Shown piece by piece: positions 6,120 to 51,986 of a stretch of 64,000 bases of DNA. The position numbers and the translations under genes were made by a program. The DNA comes from Escherichia coli (GTDB taxonomy: Bacteria; Pseudomonadota; Gammaproteobacteria; Enterobacterales; Enterobacteriaceae): NCBI RefSeq assembly GCF_003790525.1, contig NZ_CP033635.1. One strand, 5' to 3'. Within the stretch, counting starts at the first letter, position 1, and every line of letters starts with the position of its first letter. Under the pieces are notes generated by a model that saw only the letters and a list, made by a program, of their open reading frames with translations, was not told the origin of the DNA and ran no database searches.

Positions 6120-7145
6120 GTGTCAGATCAGATTATCGCCCGCGTCTCGCAATCCCTTGCCAAAGAACAGTCACTGGAAAGCCTGGTCCGACAGCTTCTG
6201 GAGATGCTGGAAATGGTCACTGATATGGAATCAACCTACCTGACCAAAGTGGATGTCGAAGCGCGCCTGCAGCATATAATGTTTGCCCGTAACAGCCAGA
6301 AAATGCACATCCCGGAGAATTTTACCGTCTCGTGGGATTATTCGTTATGCAAACGCGCCATTGATGAAAACTGCTTTTTCAGCGATGAAGTCCCCGACCG
6401 TTGGGGCGACTGTATTGCGGCACGCAATCTTGGCATCACCACATTTCTGAGCACGCCAATTCACTTACCGGATGGATCATTCTATGGCACGCTTTGCGCC
6501 GCCAGCAGTGAGAAGCGCCAGTGGAGTGAACGCGCGGAACAGGTTTTGCAGTTATTCGCCGGACTGATTGCACAATATATTCAAAAAGAGGCGCTGGTAG
6601 AACAGCTGCGCGAAGCCAATGCCGCACTGATAGCGCAATCGTATACCGACTCGTTAACCGGGCTACCGAATCGGCGGGCGATTTTTGAAAATCTGACGAC
6701 GCTGTTTTCTCTCGCCCGGCATCTTAACCATAAGATAATGATCGCGTTTATCGACCTGGATAACTTCAAATTAATCAACGATCGTTTTGGTCATAATAGT
6801 GGCGATCTGTTTCTCATTCAGGTTGGCGAGCGCCTTAATACGCTCCAGCAAAATGGCGAAGTTATTGGTCGTCTCGGCGGTGATGAGTTTTTGGTTGTTT
6901 CACTGAACAACGAGAATACGGATATTTCGTCGCTGCGAGAACGTATTCAACAGCAAATACGTGGAGAATATCACTTAGGTGATGTTGATTTGTATTATCC
7001 CGGTGCCAGTCTTGGCATAGTAGAAGTCGATCCTGAAACGACCGATGCAGACAGTGCCCTGCATGCTGCCGATATCGCGATGTATCAGGAGAAAAAACAC
7101 AAACAGAAAACACCTTTTGTCGCGCATCCAGCGCTACATTCCTGA
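6120..7145 (+). CDS. dgcP: diguanylate cyclase DgcP (YeaP), GAF-GGDEF, 341 aa
   Basis: ORF 5991..7145; GTG at 6120 gives the 341-aa product; intact GGDEF motif (RLGGDEFLVVS); N-terminal GAF-like domain. Confidence 0.92.
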   Translation: MSDQIIARVSQSLAKEQSLESLVRQLLEMLEMVTDMESTYLTKVDVEARLQHIMFARNSQKMHIPENFTVSWDYSLCKRAIDENCFFSDEVPDRWGDCIAARNLGITTFLSTPIHLPDGSFYGTLCAASSEKRQWSERAEQVLQLFAGLIAQYIQKEALVEQLREANAALIAQSYTDSLTGLPNRRAIFENLTTLFSLARHLNHKIMIAFIDLDNFKLINDRFGHNSGDLFLIQVGERLNTLQQNGEVIGRLGGDEFLVVSLNNENTDISSLRERIQQQIRGEYHLGDVDLYYPGASLGIVEVDPETTDADSALHAADIAMYQEKKHKQKTPFVAHPALHS

Positions 7146-8525: not shown

Positions 8526-9233
<708 letters not shown>

Positions 9234-11450: not shown

Positions 11451-11652
11451 CGTTCTTTGCAGTAAATAACCTGCGTCATTTCACCTTTTATTGTTTCCGT
11501 TTCGTGTTTTATGGCTTTCCGTATTCTTAATTGTTTAATTTATGTAACATGCAAATAATCAATTTGTTAATCACGACATACAACTCATTACCCTGCAAAT
11601 AATTACAACTGGCAAAAGCCAGAGACGGGCTTTTATGCCCAGGAGATGACTC

Positions 11653-13263
11653 ATGATGAGCAATGTTAAGAAAAAAGATGTGCCGCTGATAAGCATCAGT
11701 CTGGTGGCCATTCTTTTCATCGCAGCTGCATTAAGCCTTTTCCCACAACAATCGGCCGACGCGGCCAACGCTATATACACTTTTGTTACGCGTACGTTAG
11801 GTTCCGCCGTACAGGTATTGGTTTTGCTGGCAATGGGACTGGTGATTTATTTAGCCACCAGTAAATACGGCAATATTCGTCTTGGCGAAGGAAAACCGGA
11901 ATACAGCACGCTCTCCTGGCTGTTTATGTTTATTTGTGCCGGTTTAGGTTCTTCTACGCTTTATTGGGGGGTTGCTGAATGGGCCTATTATTATCAAACA
12001 CCTGGATTAAATATCGCACCGCGTTCACAACAGGCACTCGAATTTAGCGTCCCTTACTCCTTCTTCCACTGGGGCATCAGCGCCTGGGCAACTTATACGC
12101 TGGCCTCATTAATCATGGCTTATCACTTTCATGTGCGGAAAAACAAAGGTCTGAGTCTTTCCGGCATTATTGCCGCGATTACCGGCGTTCGCCCGCAAGG
12201 CCCGTGGGGAAAACTGGTCGATTTGATGTTCCTGATCGCCACTGTCGGCGCACTGACCATTTCCCTTGTTGTCACCGCAGCAACCTTTACCCGTGGGCTT
12301 TCCGCGCTGACCGGTTTACCCGATAATTTCACCGTGCAGGCATTTGTGATCCTGCTTTCCGGCGGCATTTTTTGCCTAAGCTCATGGATTGGTATCAACA
12401 ACGGTTTGCAACGTCTGAGCAAAATGGTTGGCTGGGGCGCGTTCCTGCTGCCATTACTGGTGCTCATTGTCGGCCCAACCGAATTTATTACCAACAGCAT
12501 CATCAATGCCATCGGCCTGACCACGCAAAACTTCCTGCAAATGAGCTTATTCACCGATCCGCTTGGCGATGGTTCATTTACCCGCAACTGGACCGTTTTC
12601 TACTGGCTGTGGTGGATCTCATACACCCCTGGCGTAGCAATGTTTGTCACCCGCGTTTCCCGCGGTCGTAAGATTAAAGAAGTTATCTGGGGACTGATCC
12701 TCGGCAGCACCGTCGGTTGCTGGTTCTTCTTCGGCGTAATGGAAAGCTATGCCATTCACCAGTTTATCAATGGCGTAATCAACGTCCCACAGGTGCTGGA
12801 AACACTGGGCGGCGAGACAGCTGTGCAGCAAGTTCTGATGTCGTTGCCAGCCGGTAAATTGTTCCTCGCCGCATACCTGGGCGTGATGATTATTTTCCTT
12901 GCCTCGCATATGGATGCAGTGGCCTACACCATGGCGGCGACCAGTACGCGTAATCTCCAGGAAGGTGACGATCCTGACCGTGGGCTGCGTCTTTTCTGGT
13001 GCGTGGTAATTACCCTGATCCCGCTTTCAATTCTTTTCACTGGCGCGTCGCTGGAAACGATGAAAACCACCGTCGTACTCACAGCCCTTCCGTTCCTCGT
13101 CATTTTACTGGTGAAAGTCGGCGGATTTATTCGCTGGCTGAAACAGGATTACGCCGACATTCCGGCTCATCAAGTTGAATATTATCTCCCGCAGACACCG
13201 GTTGAAGCCCTGGAAAAAACACCAGTGCTCCCTGCGGGAACCGTATTCAAAGGCGACAACTGA
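11653..13263 (+). CDS. yeaV: BCCT-family transporter YeaV (putative carnitine/betaine transporter)
   Basis: ORF with ATG at 11653 preceded by AGGAG; BCCT family resemblance by similarity to CaiT; exact annotated start uncertain. Confidence 0.88.
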
Positions 13264-15486: not shown

Positions 15487-16614
15487 TTACTGCGGATATT
15501 CCTGCAATAAATTGTGTAATGCTTCCGCCATCAGCTCACCACGCCAGCCGGAAATCAGCTCCGGCAAATTGTTCTGCGGTTTCAGTTTCCAGTGCCAGTT
15601 CAGCAGTTGGTTGATTTGCCGACGCGATGCCAGCAATTCGGCGCTGATCTTGTGCGTTTCGCTCACGTCAGTAATCAGCGACTTAATCGCTTTAAACGCT
15701 TTACGATAACCCGGCATGTCCATCAGGTTAAGCATCGGCTGCGGTAAGGCCTCTTCCGGCAATGTCTGCGCTTTTTCCACCAGCGCCAGCAGCGTTTTAC
15801 CGTGAAAGCGGATTTCGCTACCGGATAAACCCAGGCTGTCCAGTTCGCCTAAACTTCCCGGCATATAACGCGCTACAGACCACAAATGCTCTTCACGCAC
15901 GACAAAGTTCACTGCCAGATCGCGCTCCCGCGCCTTGCGCAGTCGCCAATCGGCTAACAGTTGCAGACAGGCCAGTTGGCGTGTGCGTAACTGCCAGGCA
16001 TTGGTGATATCACGCCAGGCATCTTCCGGCGCAACGACTTCCTGACGACGCATTTGCATCAGGCGGCATTCATCCAGCGCCGCAGGTAGCCAGCCGGAGG
16101 CCTCCGTTTCTACCATAAGCTTGGCGGTGATCGGTAACAAATACCAGACATCCGCCGCTGCGTATTCACACTGACGTTCGGTCAGCGGTCTGGCCAGCCA
16201 GTCGGTGCGCGATTCACTCTTGTCCAGCGTAACGCCGGAATACTCTTCCACCATGGAAGCAAAACCCCATGACATCGGGCGTCCGCAGAAGGCAGCAAGG
16301 ATTTGCGTGTCAATCAGGGGTTGTGGTAATTCGCCAAAGACATTGAGGAACACTTCCAGATCTTCACTGCCCGCATGGAGAAATTTTGTGATGGACGGAT
16401 CGCGCAGGATCGCTTTCAGTGGTGACCAGTCGGAGATCCCGAGAGGATCAATTAGCGCCAGATGCTCACCATCAAAAAGTTGAATTAGACCTAGCTGCGG
16501 GTAATAGGTGCGCGTACGAACAAATTCAGTATCCAGGGCTATCGCCGGAAAGGCACGGACGGCTTCACACAAAGAAGCCAGCGCATCGTCCGTGGTAATC
16601 ATTTGGTAATTCAA
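15487..16614 (-). CDS. rnd: ribonuclease D, 375 aa
   Basis: Full-length ORF; MNYQMITTDDALASL...; start codon is TTG (plus-strand CAA at 16612..16614), as known for rnd. Confidence 0.95.
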   Translation of the reverse strand: MNYQMITTDDALASLCEAVRAFPAIALDTEFVRTRTYYPQLGLIQLFDGEHLALIDPLGISDWSPLKAILRDPSITKFLHAGSEDLEVFLNVFGELPQPLIDTQILAAFCGRPMSWGFASMVEEYSGVTLDKSESRTDWLARPLTERQCEYAAADVWYLLPITAKLMVETEASGWLPAALDECRLMQMRRQEVVAPEDAWRDITNAWQLRTRQLACLQLLADWRLRKARERDLAVNFVVREEHLWSVARYMPGSLGELDSLGLSGSEIRFHGKTLLALVEKAQTLPEEALPQPMLNLMDMPGYRKAFKAIKSLITDVSETHKISAELLASRRQINQLLNWHWKLKPQNNLPELISGWRGELMAEALHNLLQEYPQ

Positions 16615-16635
16615 ATTGTATTCTCTTTAGTGGGC

Positions 16636-16663
16636 GTCAAAAAAAACGCCGGATTAACCGGCG
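16636..16663 (-). terminator. intrinsic terminator downstream of fadD
   Basis: Minus strand ACGCCGG-TTAAT-CCGGCGT followed by TTTTTTTT. Confidence 0.7.
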
Positions 16664-16683
16664 TCTGACGACTGACTTAACGC

Positions 16684-18369
16684 TCAGGCTTTATTGTCCA
16701 CTTTGCCGCGCGCTTCGTCACGTAATTCTCGTCGCAAAATTTTTCCGACGTTAGATTTCGGTAACTCATCACGAAACTCCACCAGCTTCGGTACTTTGTA
16801 GCCCGTGAGCTGACGGCGGCAAAAAGTCACCAGTGACTCTTCGGTAAGCGATGGATCTTTTTTCACAACGAAGATTTTCACCGCTTCACCACTAGAGCCG
16901 GAAGGTACGCCAACAGCCGCGACTTCCTGTACGCCAGGATGCTGCATGACGACATCTTCAATCTCGTTGGGATAGACGTTAAAACCGGAAACCAGAATCA
17001 TGTCTTTTTTACGATCGACAATGCGCAGGAATCCTTCTTCATCCATCACCGCGATGTCGCCGGTGTGTAACCAGCCATTTTTGATGATTTCATCGGTAGC
17101 ATCCGGACGCTGCCAGTAACCCAGCATCACCTGCGGTCCTTTGACACAAAGCTCACCTGGTTGACCAGGTGGTACTTCATTATCATCATCATCCACCAGT
17201 TTGGCTTCCGTCGACGGCACCGGCAAACCGATGCTACCACTATGATAATCAATATCATACGGGTTAACGCTCACCAGCGGCGCACACTCGGTCAGGCCAT
17301 AACCTTCCAGCAGATACTGTCCAGTCAGTTTCACCCAACGTTCTGCCACCACTTGCTGAACAGGCATCCCTCCGCCTGCGGAAAGATGCAGACTGGAGAA
17401 ATCCAGCTGCTGGAACTCTTTATTGTTCAGCAACGCATTGAACAAGGTGTTAACGCCAGTGATAGCGGTAAACGGATATTTCGCTAACTCTTTTACCAAC
17501 CCTGGAATATCGCGCGGGTTAGTGATAAGCAGGTTCTGCCCCCCCAGTTCGATAAACAGCAGGCAGTTAATGGTCAGTGCAAAAATGTGATACAGCGGCA
17601 GCGCCGTCACCACCAGCTCTTTGCCCGGATGCAACAGCGGACCATAGGTCGCGTTAACCTGTTCCAGGTTCGCCAGCATATTGCGGTGAGTCAGCATCGC
17701 GCCTTTCGCCACACCAGTGGTACCGCCGGTGTATTGCAGGAAAGCTAAATCTTCCGGCACCAGTTCGGGTTTGACGTACTGCATCCGGTAGCCGTTGTGC
17801 AGGGCGCTACGAAATGAAATGGCATCTGGCAGATGGTATTTCGGCACCAGACGCTTGATGTATTTAACAACGAAATTGACTACCGTGCCTTTTGCCGTAG
17901 ATAGCTGATCGCCCATACGGGTCAGAATTACGTGCTGAACGGCGGTTTTATCAACCACTTTTTCCAGAGTGTGGGCAAAGTTAGACACGATAACAATCGC
18001 CGATGCGCCGCTATCGTTAAGCTGATGCTCAAGTTCACGCGGGGTATACAACGGGTTAACGTTTACGACAATCATCCCGGCACGCAAAATGCCAAACAGC
18101 GCCACCGGATATTGCAATAAATTAGGCATCATCAACGCAACGCGATCGCCTTTCTTCAGTCCCAACCCTTGTTGCAAATAAGCGGCAAACGCGCGACTGC
18201 GTTCTTCCAGTTTGCGGAAGGTCATCACCTCCCCCATATTCACAAACGCGGGTTGATCGGCGTAGCGCGCGACCGACTGCTCAAACATATCTACCAGAGA
18301 TTGATAACGGTCAGGGTTGATCTCCGTCGGAACGTCCGCGGGATAACGGTTAAGCCAAACCTTCTTCAA
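16684..18369 (-). CDS. fadD: long-chain-fatty-acid--CoA ligase FadD, 561 aa
   Basis: ORF 16684..18435; the 561-aa product begins [33 protein letters not shown]..., implying a TTG start at 18369; AMP-binding motifs present. Confidence 0.93.
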
Positions 18370-18441
18370 TTCTTCACCTCTAAAATGCGTGTTCGTCGTC
18401 ATCGCAACCCCAAATGATATACATGCCGTTAACATAATATT

Positions 18442-19946: not shown

Positions 19947-21857
19947 TTACCTGGAGGATGGTATCGCAAGGAAGCGAACCGCACGGGCAATGTCACGGGT
20001 GCGCGGCGCGGGCGGCAGACTGGCGAGAAACGTCGCGCCGTAAGGGCGCATCACCAGCCGATTGTCACAAATCACCAAAACCCCGCGATCGTCGGCGTCG
20101 CGAATCAGTCGCCCTACTCCCTGCTTGAGAGTAATCACCGCATCCGGTAGTTGTACTTCATCGAACGGGTCACCACCACGCAAACGGCAATCTTCCATGC
20201 GCGCTTTTAATAGTGGATCATCCGGTGAGGTAAACGGCAACTTGTCGATAATCACCAATGACAATGTATCGCCACGCACATCCACCCCTTCCCAGAAGCT
20301 GCTGGTTGCCACAAGAAGCGCGTTACCGGCGCTGACAAATTGCTGCAACAGTTGCCCTTTGCTGGTTTCCCCCTGCAACAAAACGGGAAGCGTCATGGTA
20401 GCGCGGAACTGCTCAGCCAGATCGCGCATCATGGCGTGCGAGGTACAAAGCATAAAACAACGACCGTTGTTAGCTTCGATGATCGGTCGCAACATTGCCG
20501 CCAGTTGCCGTGCGGAGCCCGGTTGATTGGTTTGCGGCAGGTTGCGCGGCACACAGAGTAACGCCTGGCGGCTGTAATCAAACGGGCTGGGTAACAGCAA
20601 CGACTCCGCCTGTTCGATGCCAAGCCGCGAGGTGAAATGATGCAGATCGTCGTTCACCGACAGCGTTGCTGAGGTAAAGATCCAGCTACCGGGTTTTTGC
20701 GCCATTAACTCTTTGAATTTATCCGCCACGCTGAGCGGCGTGAGTGCCAGAGTAAAATGGCGCGAAGTGCATTCGTACCAGTAGCTGTAGCCCGGCTGAT
20801 TGATCTCTTTTAGCCGTTTCAGCCGCGTGCGATACAACGTGGCGCGCTCAAATGCCGCATCCAGCAAAGCGGAACGCCCCAGCGACAGTTTCGCCACGTC
20901 ATAACAAAGTTCCAGGGTGTCATCGAGCAGTAAAAACGCCCGTTGAATTTGCGGATTAGCTAACAGTTCGCGCAGGTTGCCACGATAACCAGGCTCACCG
21001 AGTTGCAGACGAAAATCCTGCGCGCTCTGGGCAAGGCGGTCGGCGCACTTTTGTAACTGCTGGGTGTCTTTTAATTCGGTGCGGTAGGCGATGGTGATGT
21101 CTTTTGCCAGGTCGAGCAGTTGTCGACTGGAGAGTGACTGACCAAAATACTGGCTGGCAATGTCGGGCAGTTGGTGGGCTTCGTCGAAGATCATGACGTC
21201 AGCTTCCGGGATCAGTTCGCCAAATCCACTCTCTTTCACCACCATATCCGCCAGAAAGAGATGATGGTTTACCACCACCACATCGGCGTCCATCGCTTTT
21301 TTGCGTGCTTTGACCACAAAGCAATCTTTATACATCGGGCAGTCGCTGCCAAGGCAGTTATCGTTGGTGCTGGTGACCAGCGGCCACGCCTGTGAATCTT
21401 CCGCCACGCTGACGCAGGTGCTGATATCACCATCGACTGTTTGATTAGACCAGGAGCGCAGCAGGATCACATCGCTTAAGATTTGTACCGGCAGATCGCC
21501 CCCCGCCAGCGCCTGCTGTTCGAGACGTTCGAGGCAGAGGTAGTTTGAGCGCCCTTTCAGCAACGCCAGGTTGCCCGTGTATTTCAATGCCTTTGAGACC
21601 GTTGGCAAATCGCGGCTGTAGAGCTGATCCTGCAACGCTTTTGAACCGGTCGAGATAATGACTTTCTTTTTCGCCCGCAGCGCAGGGGCCAGGTAAGCGT
21701 AGGTTTTGCCCGTACCGGTTCCGGCTTCCACCACCAGCGGCTGGCCTTTTTCTATCGCCTGGGTGACGGCTACCGCCATCTGTCGCTGTGGTTCTCGCGG
21801 CTTAAAGCCTGGTATCGCTTTCGCCAGCTGACCGTCTGGTGCAAAATCGTCCGTCAC
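19947..21857 (-). CDS. yoaA: DinG-family ATP-dependent DNA helicase YoaA, 636 aa
   Basis: Full-length ORF; Walker A (GTGKT), DEAH box (DEAH), Fe-S cysteine cluster. Confidence 0.95.
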   Translation of the reverse strand: MTDDFAPDGQLAKAIPGFKPREPQRQMAVAVTQAIEKGQPLVVEAGTGTGKTYAYLAPALRAKKKVIISTGSKALQDQLYSRDLPTVSKALKYTGNLALLKGRSNYLCLERLEQQALAGGDLPVQILSDVILLRSWSNQTVDGDISTCVSVAEDSQAWPLVTSTNDNCLGSDCPMYKDCFVVKARKKAMDADVVVVNHHLFLADMVVKESGFGELIPEADVMIFDEAHQLPDIASQYFGQSLSSRQLLDLAKDITIAYRTELKDTQQLQKCADRLAQSAQDFRLQLGEPGYRGNLRELLANPQIQRAFLLLDDTLELCYDVAKLSLGRSALLDAAFERATLYRTRLKRLKEINQPGYSYWYECTSRHFTLALTPLSVADKFKELMAQKPGSWIFTSATLSVNDDLHHFTSRLGIEQAESLLLPSPFDYSRQALLCVPRNLPQTNQPGSARQLAAMLRPIIEANNGRCFMLCTSHAMMRDLAEQFRATMTLPVLLQGETSKGQLLQQFVSAGNALLVATSSFWEGVDVRGDTLSLVIIDKLPFTSPDDPLLKARMEDCRLRGGDPFDEVQLPDAVITLKQGVGRLIRDADDRGVLVICDNRLVMRPYGATFLASLPPAPRTRDIARAVRFLAIPSSR

Positions 21858-23426: not shown

Positions 23427-24788
23427 ATGAAGACGTTATCTCCCGCTGTGATTACTTTACCCTGGCGTCAGGACGCCGCTGAATTTTATTTCTCACGCTT
23501 AAGCCACCTGCCGTGGGCGATGCTTTTACACTCCGGCTATGCCGATCATCCGTATAGCCGCTTTGATATTGTGGTCGCCGAGCCAATTTGCACTTTAACT
23601 ACTTTCGGTAAAGAAACCGTTATTAGTGAAAGCGATAAACGTACAACGACCACTGATGACCCGCTACAGGTGCTCCAGCAGGTGCTGGATCGCGCAGACA
23701 TTCACCCAACGCATAACGAAGATTTGCCATTTCAGGGCGGCGCGCTGGGGTTGTTTGGCTACGATCTGGGCCGCCGTTTTGAGTCACTGCCAGAAATTGC
23801 GCAGCAAGATATCGTTCTGCCGGATATGGCAGTGGGTATCTACGACTGGGCGCTGGTTGTTGACCACCAGCGTCAAACAGTTTCTTTGCTGAGTCATAAT
23901 GATGTCAATGCTCGTCGGGCCTGGCTGGAAAGCCAGCAATTCTCGCCGCAGGAAGATTTCACGCTCACTTCCGACTGGCAATCCAATATGACCCGCGAAC
24001 TGTACGGCGAAAAATTTCGCCAGGTACAGGAATATCTGCACAGCGGTGATTGCTATCAGGTGAATCTCGCCCAGCGTTTTCATGCGACCTATTCTGGCGA
24101 TGAATGGCAGGCATTCCTTCAGCTTAATCAGGCCAACCGCGCGCCGTTTAGCGCTTTTTTACGCCTTGAACAAGGCACGATTTTAAGCCTTTCGCCAGAG
24201 CGGTTTATCCTTTGTGATAACAGTGAAATCCAGACCCGCCCGATTAAAGGCACGCTACCACGCCTGCCCGATCCTCAGGAAGATAGCAAACAAGCAGAGA
24301 AACTGGCGAACTCAGCGAAAGATCGTGCCGAAAATCTGATGATTGTCGATTTAATGCGTAATGATATCGGTCGTGTTGCCGTAGCAGGTTCGGTAAAAGT
24401 ACCAGAGCTGTTCGTGGTGGAACCCTTCCCTGCCGTGCATCATCTGGTCAGCACCATAACGGCGCAACTACCAGAACAGTTACACGCCAGCGATCTGCTG
24501 CGCGCGGCTTTTCCTGGTGGCTCAATAACTGGGGCTCCGAAAGTACGGGCTATGGAAATTATCGACGAACTGGAACCGCAGCGACGCAATGCCTGGTGCG
24601 GCAGCATTGGCTATTTGAGCTTTTGCGGCAACATGGACACCAGCATTACTATCCGCACGCTGACTGCCATTAACGGACAAATTTACTGCTCTGCGGGGGG
24701 TGGAATTGTCGCCGATAGCCAGGAAGAAGCGGAATATCAGGAAACTTTTGATAAAGTTAATAAGATATTACGCCAACTGGAGAAGTAA
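23427..24788 (+). CDS. pabB: aminodeoxychorismate synthase component I PabB, 453 aa
   Basis: Full-length ORF; chorismate-binding enzyme family. Confidence 0.95.
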   Translation: MKTLSPAVITLPWRQDAAEFYFSRLSHLPWAMLLHSGYADHPYSRFDIVVAEPICTLTTFGKETVISESDKRTTTTDDPLQVLQQVLDRADIHPTHNEDLPFQGGALGLFGYDLGRRFESLPEIAQQDIVLPDMAVGIYDWALVVDHQRQTVSLLSHNDVNARRAWLESQQFSPQEDFTLTSDWQSNMTRELYGEKFRQVQEYLHSGDCYQVNLAQRFHATYSGDEWQAFLQLNQANRAPFSAFLRLEQGTILSLSPERFILCDNSEIQTRPIKGTLPRLPDPQEDSKQAEKLANSAKDRAENLMIVDLMRNDIGRVAVAGSVKVPELFVVEPFPAVHHLVSTITAQLPEQLHASDLLRAAFPGGSITGAPKVRAMEIIDELEPQRRNAWCGSIGYLSFCGNMDTSITIRTLTAINGQIYCSAGGGIVADSQEEAEYQETFDKVNKILRQLEK

Positions 24789-24791
24789 GAC

Positions 24792-25370
24792 GTGGAATAC
24801 CGTAGCCTGACGCTTGATGATTTTTTATCGCGCTTTCAACTTTTGCGCCCGCAAATTAACCGGGAAACCCTAAATCATCGTCAGGCTGCCGTGTTAATCC
24901 CCATCGTCCGTCGACCGCAACCGGGGTTGTTGCTGACTCAGCGTTCGATTCATCTGCGCAAACACGCTGGACAAGTGGCATTCCCTGGAGGCGCAGTCGA
25001 TGACACGGACGCATCCGTTATCGCCGCTGCGCTGCGCGAAGCTGAAGAAGAGGTCGCTATACCGCCTTCCACCGTTGAAGTTATCGGCGTGCTGCCGCCC
25101 GTCGATAGCGTCACTGGCTACCAGGTAACCCCAGTGGTCGGCATTATCCCGCCCGATCTGCCGTATCGCGCCAGTGAAGATGAAGTCTCGGCGGTGTTTG
25201 AAATGCCGCTCGCCCAGGCATTACATCTGGGTCGTTATCATCCTTTAGATATCTACCGCCGTGGCGATTCACATCGGGTATGGCTGTCCTGGTACGAACA
25301 GTATTTTGTATGGGGAATGACCGCAGGCATAATTCGTGAACTGGCGCTGCAAATTGGTGTGAAACCCTGA
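24792..25370 (+). CDS. nudL: Nudix CoA pyrophosphatase NudL (YeaB), 192 aa
   Basis: Full-length ORF starting (GTG) 3 nt after the pabB stop; Nudix box ([25 protein letters not shown]). Confidence 0.92.
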
Positions 25371-25553: not shown

Positions 25554-26918
25554 GTGATTAGTCTATTCGACATGTTTAAGGTGGGGATTGGTCCCTCATC
25601 TTCCCATACCGTAGGGCCTATGAAGGCGGGTAAACAGTTCGTCGATGACCTGGTCGAAAAAGGCTTACTGGATAGCGTTACTCGCGTTGCCGTGGACGTT
25701 TATGGTTCACTGTCGCTGACGGGTAAAGGCCACCACACCGATATCGCCATTATTATGGGTCTTGCAGGTAACGAACCTGCCACCGTGGATATCGACAGTA
25801 TTCCCGGTTTTATTCGCGACGTAGAAGAGCGCGAACGTCTGCTGCTGGCACAGGGACGGCATGAAGTGGATTTCCCGCGCGACAACGGGATGCGTTTTCA
25901 TAACGGTAACCTGCCGCTGCATGAAAACGGTATGCAAATCCACGCCTATAACGGCGATGAAGTCGTCTACAGCAAAACTTATTATTCCATCGGCGGCGGT
26001 TTTATCGTCGATGAAGAACACTTTGGTCAGGATGCCGCCAACGAAGTGAGCGTGCCGTATCCGTTCAAATCTGCCACCGAACTGCTCGCGTACTGCAATG
26101 AAACCGGCTATTCGCTGTCTGGTCTCGCTATGCAGAATGAACTGGCGCTGCACAGCAAGAAAGAGATCGACGAGTATTTCGCGCATGTCTGGCAAACCAT
26201 GCAGGCATGTATCGATCGCGGGATGAACACCGAAGGCGTACTGCCAGGCCCGCTGCGCGTGCCGCGTCGTGCGTCTGCCCTGCGCCGGATGCTGGTTTCC
26301 AGCGATAAACTGTCTAACGATCCGATGAATGTCATTGACTGGGTAAACATGTTTGCGCTGGCAGTTAACGAAGAGAACGCCGCCGGTGGTCGCGTGGTAA
26401 CTGCGCCAACCAACGGTGCTTGTGGCATTGTTCCGGCAGTGCTGGCTTACTATGACCACTTTATTGAGTCCGTCAGCCCGGACATCTATACCCGCTACTT
26501 TATGGCAGCGGGTGCGATTGGTGCACTGTATAAAATGAACGCCTCTATTTCCGGTGCGGAAGTCGGTTGCCAGGGCGAAGTGGGTGTTGCCTGTTCAATG
26601 GCTGCTGCGGGCCTTGCCGAGCTGTTGGGCGGTAGCCCGGAACAGGTTTGTGTGGCGGCGGAAATTGGCATGGAGCACAACCTCGGTCTGACCTGCGACC
26701 CGGTTGCAGGGCAGGTTCAGGTGCCGTGCATTGAGCGTAATGCTATTGCCTCTGTGAAGGCGATTAACGCCGCACGGATGGCTCTGCGCCGCACCAGCGC
26801 ACCGCGCGTCTCGCTGGATAAGGTCATCGAAACGATGTACGAAACCGGTAAGGACATGAACGCCAAATACCGCGAAACCTCACGCGGTGGTCTGGCAATC
26901 AAAGTCCAGTGTGACTAA
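25554..26918 (+). CDS. sdaA: L-serine dehydratase 1 SdaA, 454 aa
   Basis: Full-length ORF with GTG start at 25554 ([23 protein letters not shown]...). Confidence 0.95.
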
Positions 26919-30669: not shown

Positions 30670-31641
30670 GTGACCATTGCTATTGTTATAGGCACACATG
30701 GTTGGGCTGCAGAGCAGTTGCTTAAAACCGCAGAAATGCTGTTAGGCGAGCAGGAAAACGTCGGCTGGATCGATTTCGTTCCAGGTGAAAATGCCGAAAC
30801 GCTGATTGAAAAGTACAACGCTCAGTTGGCAAAACTCGACACCACTAAAGGCGTGCTGTTTCTCGTTGATACATGGGGAGGCAGCCCATTCAATGCTGCC
30901 AGCCGCATTGTCGTCGACAAAGAGCATTATGAAGTCATTGCAGGCGTTAACATTCCAATGCTCGTGGAAACGTTAATGGCCCGTGATGATGACCCAAGCT
31001 TTGATGAACTGGTTGCGCTGGCAGTAGAAACAGGCCGTGAAGGCGTGAAAGCTCTGAAAGCCAAACCGGTTGAAAAAGCCGCGCCAGCACCCGCTGCCGC
31101 AGCACCAAAAGCGGCTCCAACTCCGGCAAAACCAATGGGACCAAACGACTACATGGTTATTGGCCTTGCGCGTATCGACGACCGTCTGATTCACGGTCAG
31201 GTCGCCACCCGCTGGACCAAAGAAACCAATGTCTCCCGTATTATTGTTGTTAGTGATGAAGTGGCTGCGGATACCGTTCGTAAGACACTGCTCACCCAGG
31301 TTGCACCTCCGGGCGTAACAGCACACGTAGTTGATGTTGCCAAAATGATTCGCGTCTACAACAACCCGAAATATGCTGGCGAACGCGTAATGCTGTTATT
31401 TACCAACCCAACAGATGTAGAGCGTCTCGTTGAAGGCGGCGTGAAAATCACCTCTGTTAACGTCGGTGGTATGGCATTCCGTCAGGGTAAAACCCAGGTG
31501 AATAACGCGGTTTCGGTTGATGAAAAAGATATCGAGGCGTTCAAGAAACTGAATGCGCGCGGTATTGAGCTGGAAGTCCGTAAGGTTTCCACCGATCCGA
31601 AACTGAAAATGATGGATCTGATCAGCAAAATCGATAAGTAA
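30670..31641 (+). CDS. manX: PTS mannose-specific EIIAB ManX, 323 aa
   Basis: Full-length ORF with GTG start at 30670 after AGGAGG; Ala/Pro-rich linker (KAAPAPAAAAPKAAPTPAKP) between IIA and IIB. Confidence 0.95.
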   Translation: MTIAIVIGTHGWAAEQLLKTAEMLLGEQENVGWIDFVPGENAETLIEKYNAQLAKLDTTKGVLFLVDTWGGSPFNAASRIVVDKEHYEVIAGVNIPMLVETLMARDDDPSFDELVALAVETGREGVKALKAKPVEKAAPAPAAAAPKAAPTPAKPMGPNDYMVIGLARIDDRLIHGQVATRWTKETNVSRIIVVSDEVAADTVRKTLLTQVAPPGVTAHVVDVAKMIRVYNNPKYAGERVMLLFTNPTDVERLVEGGVKITSVNVGGMAFRQGKTQVNNAVSVDEKDIEAFKKLNARGIELEVRKVSTDPKLKMMDLISKIDK

Positions 31642-34876: not shown

Positions 34877-35682
34877 TAAGAACGCTGCCAGAGGTGAATA
34901 TTAAAGTCCGTCTGGCAGTCGAACACTTCTTTTGCGGCCAGTGTTTGCCAGACTTCTGACTTCGCACGCCAGGCAAACGGCGTCATCTGCAATAATGCGA
35001 CGGCTTCGTCACCGCGAAGACGCATCGGATAACACAACTCATCACTCTGCTGTAATGTAAAACCTTCCAGTTGTTCTGCATGTGGTGCATGAAGATGTAC
35101 TTCATTGTAAATCAGCCCCTTCAGCTCCATCAAATGTCGCGGTCCCGGCGTGGCAGTAATGACCCAACCGCCAGGCTTCACTACTCGCGCTAATTCTTCT
35201 GCTTTACACGGCGCGTAAATACGTATTATGGCGTCCATACTGGTATCGGAAAACGGCAAACGGTGGCTGGAAGCAACACAAAAAGTGACCTGCGGATAGC
35301 GTTTCGCCGCCGCTTTTATCGCTACCTTCGAGACATCCAGACCAAACGTGGTGATTTCGGGCAGCGCATCGGCAAATGCGTGTGTGTAATACCCTTCACC
35401 ACAGCCAATATCCAGCACCGCCGTGGCCTTTTCATCAAGCCGTTCCCGCAGTTGGGCGACAATTGCATCACGCAGCGGCTGATAATGTCCGGCATCTAAG
35501 AATGCGCGGCGTGCTTGCATCATTTCCGCGCTGTCGCCCGGATCACGAGACCGTTTATGCTGAACGGGCAGCAGATTGACATACCCTTCTTTCGCCATAT
35601 CAAACTGATGTCACTGGGGACAGATATAGCTGTTTTTTTCACGCGAAAGAGGCTGATGGCAAAGTGGACAGGAAAACGACAT
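34873..35682 (-). pseudogene. rlmA: 23S rRNA (guanine745-N1)-methyltransferase RlmA (RrmA/YebH), interrupted by in-frame TGA at codon 24
   Basis: Minus strand from ATG at 35682 reads [34 protein letters not shown]...; stop at 35617..35619; longest intact ORF is 34873..35598 (241 aa from Met29) versus the 269-aa characterised protein. Confidence 0.6.
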
Positions 35683-35847: not shown

Positions 35848-36057
35848 TCAGATAGCTGTTACGTTAACAGCTGCCGGACCTTTCTGGCCGTCCTGAATTT
35901 CGAACTCAACGTTCTGACCTTCAGCCAGAGTTTTGAAGCCATTACCCTGGATAGCGGAGAAGTGTACGAACACGTCTTTGCTGCCATCAGCCGGAGTAAT
36001 GAAGCCAAAACCTTTAGACTCGTTGAACCACTTAACCTGACCTTTAATCTTTGCCAT
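35848..36057 (-). CDS. cspC: cold shock-like protein CspC, 69 aa
   Basis: Full-length ORF; [22 protein letters not shown]... with RNP motifs. Confidence 0.97.
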
Positions 36058-37244: not shown

Positions 37245-37388
37245 TCACCACGGGATAAACTGGTTAATGGCACAAATTCCGCTGAAAAATTGTACATCCT
37301 GATCGCACATCATGTTGAATACCTGCGCCCAAAGCAGCAAGCAAGCCAACACCACGACAACCAGAACGACCCATCGAAACTTTTTCAC
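37245..37388 (-). CDS. mgrB: PhoQ feedback inhibitor MgrB, 47 aa
   Basis: Minus-strand translation (GTG start) [46 protein letters not shown]; GGAG upstream. Confidence 0.88.
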
Positions 37389-48800: not shown

Positions 48801-48844
48801 TATGCTAAACTGCGCGCCTGTTTTTTTGCCAGTGGTATATGCTC

Positions 48845-50284
48845 GTGGCCCAACACACCGTTTATTTCCCGGACGCCTTTCTGACACAAATGCGCGAAGC
48901 TATGCCTTCGACGCTCTCTTTTGATGATTTTCTTGCCGCCTGTCAGCGCCCGTTGCGCCGCAGCATTCGCGTTAATACGCTGAAAATCTCCGTTGCTGAT
49001 TTCCTGCAATTAACCGCTCCTTATGGCTGGACGCTTACGCCAATTCCGTGGTGTGAAGAAGGTTTCTGGATTGAACGCGACGATGAAGATGCATTGCCAT
49101 TGGGTAGTACCGCCGAGCATTTAAGCGGCCTGTTTTATATTCAGGAAGCCAGTTCAATGTTGCCCGTTGCCGCCTTGTTTGCTGACGGTAATGCACCACA
49201 GCGGGTGATGGATGTCGCTGCCGCGCCCGGCTCCAAAACGACGCAAATTGCCGCGCGGATGAATAACGAAGGGGCGATCCTTGCCAATGAGTTTTCCGCC
49301 AGTCGGGTAAAAGTGTTACATGCCAATATCAGCCGCTGTGGCATCAGTAATGTTGCGCTCACACATTTTGATGGCCGCGTGTTTGGTGCGGCAGTGCCAG
49401 AAATGTTCGATGCCATTTTGCTGGACGCTCCCTGCTCCGGCGAAGGCGTGGTGCGTAAAGATCCCGATGCGCTAAAAAACTGGTCACCAGAAAGCAATCA
49501 GGAAATCGCAGCGACCCAACGGGAACTGATCGACAGCGCCTTTCATGCATTACGCCCTGGCGGTACGCTGGTTTACTCGACCTGTACCTTAAACAGGGAA
49601 GAAAACGAAGCCGTTTGCCTGTGGCTGAAAGAGACTTACCCCGACGCAGTAGAGTTTTTACCGCTTGGCGATCTCTTCCCTGGTGCAAATAAGGCGCTGA
49701 CCGAAGAAGGCTTTTTGCATGTTTTCCCACAAATTTACGACTGCGAAGGCTTCTTCGTTGCTCGTCTGCGTAAAACTCAGGCGATCCCCGTCTTACCCGC
49801 CCCAAAATACAAAGTGGGCAATTTCCCGTTTAGCCCGGTGAAAGATCGCGAAGCCGGTCAAATTCGTCAGGCGGCTGCAGGTGTTGGCTTAAACTGGGAT
49901 GGAAACCTGCGACTCTGGCAACGCGACAAAGAACTGTGGTTGTTCCCGGTAGGCATTGAAGCCCTGATCGGTAAAGTCCGATTTTCTCGGTTGGGGATTA
50001 AACTTGCCGAAACGCATAACAAAGGTTATCGCTGGCAGCATGAAGCGGTTATTGCCCTTGCCTCCCCCGACAATGTGAACGCTTTTGAACTGACACCGCA
50101 GGAAGCGGAAGAGTGGTATCGCGGGCGCGATGTTTACCCGCAAGCCGCGCCAGTAGCGGATGATGTATTGGTTACTTTCCAGCATCAGCCGATTGGTTTA
50201 GCCAAACGAATTGGTTCGCGACTGAAAAACAGCTACCCGCGTGAACTGGTGCGAGACGGGAAACTTTTTACCGGTAACGCCTGA
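48845..50284 (+). CDS. rsmF: 16S rRNA (cytosine1407-C5)-methyltransferase RsmF (YebU), 479 aa
   Basis: ORF 48839..50284; GTG at 48845 gives the 479-aa product ([12 protein letters not shown]...); SAM-dependent MTase fold with catalytic Cys ([11 protein letters not shown]). Confidence 0.92.
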
Positions 50285-51591: not shown

Positions 51592-51725
51592 CAATATTTT
51601 CCTCCCGCGCTAAAGATCACATAATCTTAACAAGAATGTTAAAAAACGCTGGACTCAGACAGTAGAGTGTGTGTTATGGTTGACTATAAAGTCAGCGAAG
51701 GGAATGCTTCTGGCTTTTAACAGAT

Positions 51726-51828
51726 AAAAAGAGACCGAACACGATTCCTGTATTCGGTCCAGGGAAATGGCTCTTGGGAGAGAGCCGTGCGCTAAAAGTT
51801 GGCATTAATGCAGGCTTAGTTGCCTTGC
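51726..51828 (-). ncRNA. sdsR: small regulatory RNA SdsR (RyeB)
   Basis: Minus strand reads GCAAGGCAACUAAGCCUGCAUUAAUGCCAACUUUUAGCGCACGGCUCUCUCCCAAGAGCCAUUUCCCUGGACCGAAUACAGGAAUCGUGUUCGGUCUCUUUUU, matching remembered SdsR including its 3' terminator hairpin and U-tail; sigma-S-type -10 (CTATTCTTAA) just upstream. Confidence 0.85.
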
Positions 51829-51915
51829 TCTTTAAGAATAGATGACGACGCCAGATTTTCCAGTTTGCGTGCAAAATGGTCAATAAAAAGCGCGGTGGTC
51901 ATCAGCTTAAATGTT

Positions 51916-51957
51916 AAAAACCGCCCGTTCTGGTGAAAGAACTGAGGCGGTTTTTTT
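51916..51957. terminator. bidirectional intrinsic terminator (RyeA on +, yebY on -)
   Basis: AAAAACCGCCCGTTC-loop-GAACTGAGGCGGTTTTTTT; A-run and T-run flank an imperfect stem. Confidence 0.65.
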
Positions 51958-51986
51958 ATTGGAAATCAAAAGGCTATTTTAGGTAA

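Follow-up and report, generated by a model that had tools for sequence, protein, structure and literature searches.

Introduction

Roughly a sixth of all E. coli genes start with GTG or TTG. GUG and UUG are both read by the initiator fMet-tRNA, so that the proteins still begin with methionine, and as their pairing in the P site is poorer and IF3 discriminates against them, initiation is several-fold less efficient than at AUG. The output of a gene is set by the start codon, the strength of the Shine-Dalgarno (SD) sequence and the local context in combination.

The UUG start of rnd, which encodes RNase D, and the TTG start of fadD have been known since around 1989-1992. Zhang and Deutscher are said to have shown in 1989 that the UUG of rnd limits expression and in 1992 that a U-rich element is required for rnd translation, and a 1989 report reportedly gave Met-Asn-Tyr-Gln as the native N-terminus of RNase D. 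A review describes rnd as using UUG together with a translational enhancer, and a separate paper cites Zhang & Deutscher (1989) for having described that expression can depend on the start codon. Published values place expression from GTG and TTG 8- to 12-fold below that from ATG, or 6-8 times lower for UUG. The classical description of fadD (Black et al., 1992) has a single start and does not include a conserved in-frame ATG at -33.

Three further groups of starts are comparable. In lacI, cra and mlc (Cherrak et al., 2024; PMC11445065) a weak GTG start is likewise kept across genera and ATG avoided, and where this is the case selection on the expression level is implied. The products of these three genes regulate transcription, and an effect on fitness has been demonstrated for them, whereas those studied here code for enzymes, transporters and one small membrane protein, and their case is known from sequence comparison. 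The AUU start of infC, with its autoregulation by IF3, shares with the present genes the use of a non-AUG start to limit and regulate initiation, but this non-canonical codon works in a specific feedback loop, of which the present genes show no sign. The upstream in-frame starts obtained by Ribo-RET (uTISs; Meydan, 2019) and TetRP (Nakahigashi, 2016) resemble fadD in that two candidate starts lie on one mRNA, each with an SD; unlike the alternative N-terminal proteoforms of those systems, the longer FadD is a candidate product.

Results

Non-ATG starts in the window

The window analysed is a stretch of 64,000 nucleotides of E. coli DNA that differs at 4 bases from the reverse complement of E. 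coli SMS-3-5 (NC_010498.1). Ten of its 70 complete coding sequences start with a codon other than ATG (eight GTG and two TTG, if rnd is taken to start at its TTG). For all ten, the non-ATG start agrees with the curated K-12 record. With published annotation frequencies of 13.8% GTG and 4.35% TTG as background, there was no excess in the window (binomial p=0.53 for all non-ATG starts, 0.73 for GTG and 0.77 for TTG).

A sequence-only reading of this DNA had listed eight such codons, and each was found where it had been placed. For dgcP, nudL, sdaA, manX, rsmF and mgrB a GTG stands at the annotated CDS start (Table 1), and for fadD the minus strand reads TTG at 18369..18367, where both PGAP and the curated K-12 record annotate the start. 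Seven of the eight are annotated starts in both the SMS-3-5 RefSeq (PGAP) and the curated K-12 annotation, the exception being rnd. The eight entries were correct and the list incomplete, the GTG starts of leuE (9164) and yoaA (21857) being absent from it. The available evidence supports all eight codons as real initiation codons, and the non-AUG starts of the window are very probably true near-cognate starts, used by ordinary housekeeping genes of E. coli.

That rnd and fadD adjoin each other and both start with TTG, with the fadD terminator serving also as a leader element of rnd, might suggest a window unusually rich in non-AUG starts or a regional mechanism shared by the two genes. We consider this extremely improbable, as 10 of 70 does not exceed the background, at least one neighbouring pair should arise by chance from the 81 or more annotated UUG genes in ∼4300, and rnd and fadD each have a promoter of their own and are unrelated in function. 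The observation of non-AUG starts is correct and already known, and nothing in the window is unusual.

Table 1. Start codons and neighbouring elements, with the evidence for each
Feature	Coordinates	Strand	Evidence
dgcP GTG start	6120..6122	+	K-12 same CDS length and start codon; best SD among candidates
leuE GTG start (absent from the sequence-only reading)	9162..9164	-	GTG in 8/8 loci; SD dG -6.5
In-frame ATG, rnd codon 5; PGAP start (371 aa), probably not the start	16600..16602	-	PGAP coordinates; no SD, dG +0.4
TTG start of rnd, giving RNase D of 375 aa	16612..16614	-	Sequence; curated K-12 CDS of 1128 nt; conservation; codon periodicity
Weak SD-like AAGAGA, 7 nt before rnd TTG	16622..16627	-	AGA invariant in 79/80 sequences; anti-SD duplex dG -2.9
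G+C hairpin and T8 run: fadD terminator, reported U-rich element for rnd translation	16639..16666	-	Terminator scan; fold
fadD TTG initiation codon (561-aa FadD)	18367..18369	-	Sequence; PGAP and K-12; cross-species comparison
Strong SD AGAGGTGA for fadD TTG	18375..18382	-	AGAGGTG invariant; dG -7.1
Candidate second start of fadD, an in-frame ATG 11 codons before the TTG (FadD of 572 aa)	18400..18402	-	Invariance; third-position bias; TetRP
Conserved GGGG, SD-like, 5 nt before upstream fadD ATG	18408..18411	-	GGG in 68/69 sequences; dG -5.4
yoaA GTG start (absent from the sequence-only reading)	21855..21857	-	GTG in 70/70 species; SD dG -10.7
nudL GTG start, 3 nt after pabB stop codon	24792..24794	+	Annotated start; SD comparison of in-frame candidates
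sdaA GTG start	25554..25556	+	GTG in 53/53 species; SD dG -6.9; in-frame ATG at +6 codons without SD
manX GTG start	30670..30672	+	In-frame stop 2 codons upstream; near-consensus SD AAGGAGGT, dG -12.9
mgrB GTG start	37386..37388	-	Annotated start; SD; retapamulin profiling
rsmF GTG start	48845..48847	+	N-terminal peptide, residues 2-17; Ribo-RET support

Conservation of the start codons

The start codons were compared across 80 species genomes of Enterobacteriaceae in a single scan of rnd and the 10 kb on either side of it; manX, mgrB and rsmF lie outside these loci, and dgcP and leuE were compared within Escherichia only. The rnd start is TTG in 75 of 79 species and GTG in the other 4, and that of fadD is TTG in 57 and GTG in 18 of 75, which corresponds to six independent switches between TTG and GTG, with no change to ATG. 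In yoaA, sdaA and leuE the GTG was retained at every locus compared (Table 1), as it was at the five Escherichia loci of dgcP, and nudL was more variable (GTG in 37 species, ATG in 17 and TTG in 2). ATG was found at the start positions of rnd, fadD, yoaA or sdaA in none of the cross-species set, and control genes retained their ATG (tsaB 72/72, yeaX 14/14). Within the species, of 5426 E. coli genomes 5405 share an identical 33-mer carrying the TTG of rnd, and 5415 that of fadD. The GTG or TTG lies at the in-frame 5' boundary of the conserved coding region, as judged for rnd by codon periodicity; in fadD the periodicity reaches further upstream.

Shine-Dalgarno sequences

Each start is preceded at 5-10 nt by a ribosome-binding signal, with a dG of -5.9 to -12.9 in eight genes and a weak one of about -2.9 in rnd and rsmF, and in nine of the ten genes the claimed start has the best SD among the in-frame candidates. 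Eight genes have no better in-frame AUG nearby; rsmF has an ATG at -2 codons and fadD one at -11 codons. A strong SD probably offsets the weak codon in fadD, manX and yoaA. Stronger SD compensation in the non-ATG genes as a group was not significant (mean -6.9 vs -5.6 kcal/mol, p=0.29).

The start of rnd

The minus strand reads TTG at 16614..16612, and the curated K-12 record, the 375-aa RNase D of PDB 1YT3 and the cross-species comparison agree with the rnd start claimed there by the sequence-only reading. PGAP departs from it and places the start at ATG 16602 in all four genomes inspected (SMS-3-5 and three others), by which RNase D would have 371 aa; the TTG, four codons before that ATG, would then belong to an untranslated leader. 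ATG is the stronger codon, but we find this reading very improbable. Coding-type variation of rnd begins at the TTG: 12 of 13 inferred changes in codons 2-4 fall at third positions, and upstream of the TTG sites vary freely and at all codon positions, with an in-frame stop 5 codons upstream. The ATG at codon 5 is replaced by ATT in one species and lacks an SD, and the conserved AAGAGA, the sole SD-like element near the start, is spaced correctly for the TTG. The literature gives a UUG start as well. The N-terminal peptide relevant to the choice is MNYQMITTDDALASLCEAVR.

With its start at TTG, rnd in the window corresponds to the E. coli rnd of Zhang & Deutscher in gene and sequence, with UUG, weak SD, GC hairpin and U8 at the same spacing, and the K-12 start region differs from it by one base, at -6. 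We see no biological difference from the known description, the downstream ATG start of PGAP being the only discrepancy. The GC hairpin and U-run precede the UUG, between the promoter and the SD; the hairpin is conserved, its stem pairing being kept by compensatory changes in Kluyvera-like and Cedecea-like sequences. A promoter scan did not find an rnd promoter inside the 3' end of fadD. RNase D is probably kept low by the UUG, the weak SD and the hairpin and U8 run upstream, an element that doubles as the terminator of fadD, in combination. That the UUG limits rnd expression, as the sequence-only reading had put it, accords with the 1989 finding attributed to Zhang and Deutscher, itself cited elsewhere for start-codon dependence.

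Two candidate starts of fadD

The promoter, 5'UTR and start region of fadD are identical in K-12 and the window over 131 nt. As the transcription start site lies 60 bp upstream of the TTG (cited in PMC3460868), the in-frame ATG 18402 is on the mRNA, and two in-frame start codons, each with its own ribosome-binding signal, are thus found on one transcript. Next to the TTG product of 561 aa, initiation at the conserved AUG, which lies 33 nt upstream, would give a FadD of 572 aa with the extension M-T-T-N-x-x-F-R-G-(D/E)-x, which we regard as possible, if somewhat doubtful.

ATG 18402 is invariant in 69/69 distinct sequences, and the stretch from it to the TTG is free of stops and indels. This stretch evolves as coding sequence, in a small sample of ∼8 informative codons: the 8 codons outside the SD have 15, 20 and 44 Fitch steps at positions 1, 2 and 3, codons 2, 3, 4, 7 and 10 have 1, 3 and 26, and variation is purely synonymous at the codons for Thr2, Asn4 and Phe7. 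Upstream of the ATG, variable sites lie in a different phase. The GGGG stands 5 nt before the ATG in an unstructured 5'UTR, and in Table S5 of Nakahigashi (2016) fadD is entered as alt-N'(new) at -33 with a TetRP value of 4.04, near the lowest in that table, and a CmRP of 0. Since the upstream ATG is conserved and coincides with a ribosome-profiling signal, TTG may not be the sole start of fadD.

The curated and PGAP annotations nevertheless retain the TTG, and the conservation of the extension could also reflect a regulatory RNA or a DNA site. According to Black and co-workers in 1992, purified FadD reportedly begins Met-Lys-Lys-Val-Trp and is the TTG product. The entries listed in the accessible part of a 2026 N-terminomics supplement (TRAINSPOTTER) include none for fadD, and a peptide of the upstream-start FadD was found neither among them nor in a Salmonella proteoform supplement. 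A full-text literature search on the TTG start of fadD brought up nothing relevant.

RNA structure was rejected as the reason for the conserved 5'UTR block, the UTR being less structured than shuffled controls (z +2.16). ATG 18435, 22 codons upstream of the TTG, was discarded as a start codon; it lies upstream of where transcription begins, and an in-frame stop intervenes in many species.

The GTG-start genes

Direct evidence exists for mgrB and rsmF. Retapamulin profiling (Ribo-RET) shows a peak at the annotated start of mgrB, and in the accessible part of the TRAINSPOTTER supplement an N-terminal peptide of rsmF starts at residue 2 of the GTG-initiated protein, the sole match for the searched genes among the entries listed; the in-frame ATG 48839, 2 codons upstream, is not the mapped start. 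The Salmonella proteoform supplement contained none of the searched genes, and direct N-terminal evidence for dgcP, leuE, yoaA, nudL, sdaA or manX was not found in the readable literature.

For dgcP, leuE and nudL readable profiling data were not found either, and as dgcP and leuE could be compared within Escherichia only, one or more of these three GTG starts might be mis-assigned. The chance of this appears small: the three genes have no nearby in-frame ATG with a usable SD, the SDs of alternative starts are weaker, or conserved sequence would be lost with them, and PGAP and the curated K-12 record agree on the GTG.

Discussion

The conserved weak starts described here are textbook expression tuning. 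Our analysis shows the codons, their SDs and their conservation; how strongly they affect expression, and what the U-rich element does for rnd, we take from the literature or infer.

We would like to point out that PGAP removes four residues of RNase D in every pipeline-annotated genome inspected, in conflict with the curated record, with the sequence in the crystal structure and with the pattern of evolutionary change. The main significance of our analysis is for annotation quality.

It is conceivable, though on present evidence we think it unlikely, that fadD has a dual start across Enterobacteriaceae, in which the weak TTG codon with its strong SD yields the classical acyl-CoA synthetase of 561 aa and the invariant AUG with its weak SD the 572-aa protein; avoidance of ATG at the TTG position would then balance both. 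If true, the second start would be relevant to work on N-terminal proteoforms and wherever fadD expression is engineered to make fatty-acid-derived products.

Results

Start codons in the window

Apart from four single-base differences, the whole window is the reverse complement of NC_010498.1 1324715-1388714, and the 5-kb piece around rnd and fadD (yeaX-rnd-fadD-yeaY-tsaB) has 100% identity with E. coli SMS-3-5 and related strains. Two reference annotations were used, the RefSeq pipeline (PGAP) annotation of SMS-3-5 and the curated K-12 MG1655 record, and the first codon was taken from all 70 complete annotated CDS of the window. By PGAP coordinates, 61 of these begin with ATG, eight with GTG and one with TTG; with rnd taken as TTG, non-ATG starts amount to 10/70 (14%). 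Both 16612-16614 and 18367-18369 are 'caa' on the plus strand, hence TTG on the minus strand. The sequence-only reading had named TTG starts for rnd and fadD and GTG starts for sdaA, manX, nudL, dgcP, rsmF and mgrB. All of these codons are genuine and lie where it placed them, but its list omitted the GTG starts of leuE and yoaA.

Non-ATG starts of the window, two ATG controls, and the codon opposite residue 1 in orthologues at the cross-species loci
Gene	Start codon	Position	Strand	Basis	Cross-species codon
dgcP	GTG	6120		PGAP first codon	GTG 5/5
leuE	GTG	9164	minus	PGAP first codon	GTG 8/8
rnd	TTG	16614	minus		TTG 75, GTG 4, ATG 0
fadD	TTG	18369	minus	sole TTG by PGAP coordinates	TTG 57, GTG 18, ATG 0
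yoaA	GTG	21857	minus	PGAP first codon	GTG 70/70
nudL	GTG	24792		PGAP first codon	GTG 37, ATG 17, TTG 2
sdaA	GTG	25554		PGAP first codon	GTG 53/53
manX	GTG	30670		PGAP first codon
mgrB	GTG	37388	minus	PGAP first codon
rsmF	GTG	48845		PGAP first codon
tsaB (control)					ATG 72/72
yeaX (control)					ATG 14/14

The corresponding region of curated K-12 has eight GTG and three TTG starts, the third TTG being that of yeaV. This yeaV start (= window 11818; 481 aa) results from a K-12-specific 225-bp deletion: window 11556-11780, absent from MG1655, holds the yeaV ATG start (11653) and first codons. In the window strain yeaV is intact (536 aa). The cold-shock gene at 35848-36057 is inconsistently named, cspE by PGAP (SMS-3-5) and cspC by curated K-12, and the pphA-yebY intergenic region (~51592-51986) carries the sRNA pair sdsR/ryeA in curated K-12 and no feature in the PGAP SMS-3-5 table.

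The four differences from SMS-3-5 (34724, 35613, 40084 and 53938) are all G:C-to-A:T transitions and all protein-changing (MntP A139T, RlmA R24*, YebQ G396E and HolE P70L). At 35613, in codon 24 of rlmA on the minus strand, A replaces the G of SMS-3-5, so that CGA (Arg) becomes TGA (stop); the surrounding 401-bp region has no exact match among 5426 complete E. coli genomes (best 99.8%). As a product of natural drift such a pattern is odd; mutagenesis, laboratory evolution, sequence errors or editing would fit it better.

Conservation and frequency of the weak start codons

A single RNase D scan of species-representative genomes gave 80 Enterobacteriaceae loci with flanks of up to 10 kb on each side, from genera including Escherichia, Citrobacter, Enterobacter, Klebsiella, Raoultella, Kosakonia, Kluyvera and Cedecea; orthologues were placed by tblastn and the codon opposite residue 1 was scored (table). 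Among the genes checked, only nudL has a start codon that drifts among GTG, ATG and TTG. Within E. coli, the 33-mers across the fadD and rnd TTG codons are identical in 5415/5426 and 5405/5426 complete genomes, respectively. Conservation both across species and within E. coli therefore indicates that these weak start codons are kept by selection and are not transient.

Published frequencies in well-annotated bacterial genomes are 81.8% ATG, 13.8% GTG and 4.35% TTG. Binomial tests found no enrichment in the window of non-ATG starts (10/70, p=0.53), of GTG (p=0.73) or of TTG (p=0.77 or 0.38, depending on the background chosen). Since many genes genome-wide start with UUG (81 were annotated in K-12 in 2006), chance alone should yield about one or more adjacent pairs like rnd-fadD.

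The start of rnd

In all four genomes inspected (SMS-3-5 and three other E. coli), PGAP places the rnd start at ATG 16602, which lies four codons 3' of the TTG and gives 371 aa, whereas the curated K-12 CDS of 1128 nt (375 aa) matches the TTG start. Codon variation was counted by Fitch parsimony along a neighbour-joining tree. In the three codons that separate TTG from ATG, steps fell almost exclusively at the third position (0, 1, 4; 0, 0, 5; and 0, 0, 3 steps at positions 1, 2, 3), and triplets just 5' of the TTG changed at all positions (e.g. 19, 11, 9). An in-frame stop lies five codons 5' of the TTG, and in one species the downstream ATG is replaced by ATT. The only Shine-Dalgarno (SD)-like element at rnd, AAGAGA, is 7 nt before the TTG, with none found for ATG 16602. 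The 375-aa RNase D of PDB 1YT3 has the N-terminus MNYQM. Codon periodicity, AAGAGA spacing, the curated K-12 record and the PDB entry bear out the claim that rnd starts at TTG. The PGAP start is very probably wrong, and it looks like a systematic truncation of rnd by four residues in pipeline annotation. The UUG start was reportedly determined by N-terminal sequencing, and its change to AUG is said to have raised expression about tenfold.

Also 5' of rnd is the fadD terminator, a hairpin (GACGCCGG-loop-CCGGCGTC, then T8) that is conserved with compensatory changes in the stem. A T/A polymorphism at window 16620, minus-strand position -6 relative to the rnd TTG, falls in the gap that follows the SD-like element; the 33-mer with the T allele of the window occurs in 2149/5426 genomes, and K-12 has A.

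The start of fadD

The fadD TTG (561 aa) is the annotated start in PGAP and curated K-12 alike and has a strong, invariant SD, AGAGGTGA (duplex energy with the anti-SD, dG, -7.1 kcal/mol). By parsimony, TTG and GTG replaced one another six times independently at this position, and ATG never arose. A mechanical ORF list runs fadD up to ATG 18435 (583 aa), which was rejected as a start: it is 5' of the transcription start site (60 bp before the TTG), and in many species an in-frame stop cuts the ORF off from it.

Another in-frame ATG (18400-18402, minus strand) lies on the mRNA 11 codons 5' of the TTG. It is invariant in 69/69 distinct Enterobacteriaceae sequences, all of which are free of stops and indels between it and the TTG, and a conserved GGGG (18408-18411, minus strand; dG -5.4) stands 5 nt before it. 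The codons that follow are Thr (ACG/ACC/ACA), Thr, Asn (AAT 42, AAC 27), a pair of variable codons, Phe (TTC 36, TTT 33), Arg-Gly (the SD itself), Asp/Glu and a last, variable codon. Their variation is codon-like, weighted towards third positions: for the eight non-SD codons, parsimony gives 15, 20 and 44 steps at positions 1, 2 and 3, and for codons 2, 3, 4, 7 and 10 it gives 1, 3 and 26; 5' of the ATG, variable sites fall in another phase. Folding gives the 5'UTR less structure than shuffled sequence has (z +2.16), and therefore RNA structure does not explain this conservation. Purified FadD reportedly begins Met-Lys-Lys-Val-Trp; methionine at the TTG-encoded position proves initiation there, and this N-terminus is evidence against a start at ATG 18402. 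Nakahigashi et al. (2016, Table S5) list the ATG at -33 as 'alt-N'(new)', an alternative start not reported before, with a 572-aa product; its ribosome-profiling signals are TetRP 4.04, close to the bottom of that table, and CmRP 0. The TTG is a real start of fadD, and probably the main one. We regard a second, upstream AUG start as plausible, though less likely than not; fadD may make a 572-aa form beside the 561-aa form.

Other GTG starts

The manX GTG has an in-frame stop two codons 5' and a near-consensus SD (dG -12.9), and the SD of yoaA has a dG of -10.7. In sdaA, leuE, nudL and dgcP, the annotated GTG has the best SD of each gene, and no rival ATG with an SD was found. At 24786-24794, the nudL GTG lies 3 nt past the pabB stop and its SD is within the pabB gene, an arrangement that points to translational coupling. 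For mgrB, the peak of retapamulin initiation profiling (Ribo-RET) coincides with the annotated start. At rsmF (48839-48847), an in-frame ATG lies two codons 5' of the GTG and the SDs of both are weak. A 2026 N-terminomics supplement gives rsmF a GTG database start, a peptide of residues 2-17 and Ribo-RET support; this N-terminal peptide rules out the upstream ATG as start.

Discussion

GUG and UUG are decoded as fMet by the initiator tRNA and are disfavoured by IF3. Reporter output from GTG and TTG was 8- to 12-fold below that from ATG, and in a second reporter study UUG was 6-8 times below AUG or GUG. Expression level would be set by the start codon together with SD strength. SD strength did not differ significantly between ATG and non-ATG genes in the window; in rnd and rsmF both codon and SD are weak. 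A review describes the rnd mRNA as UUG-initiated and equipped with a translational enhancer, citing Zhang & Deutscher (1992), and Osterman et al. give Zhang & Deutscher (1989) as a described example of start-codon dependence.

The non-AUG starts of this region are correct, but they are known features of well-studied genes, show no enrichment and are not new. What value remains comes from two points, the disagreement between PGAP and curated annotation over rnd and a possible second start of fadD.
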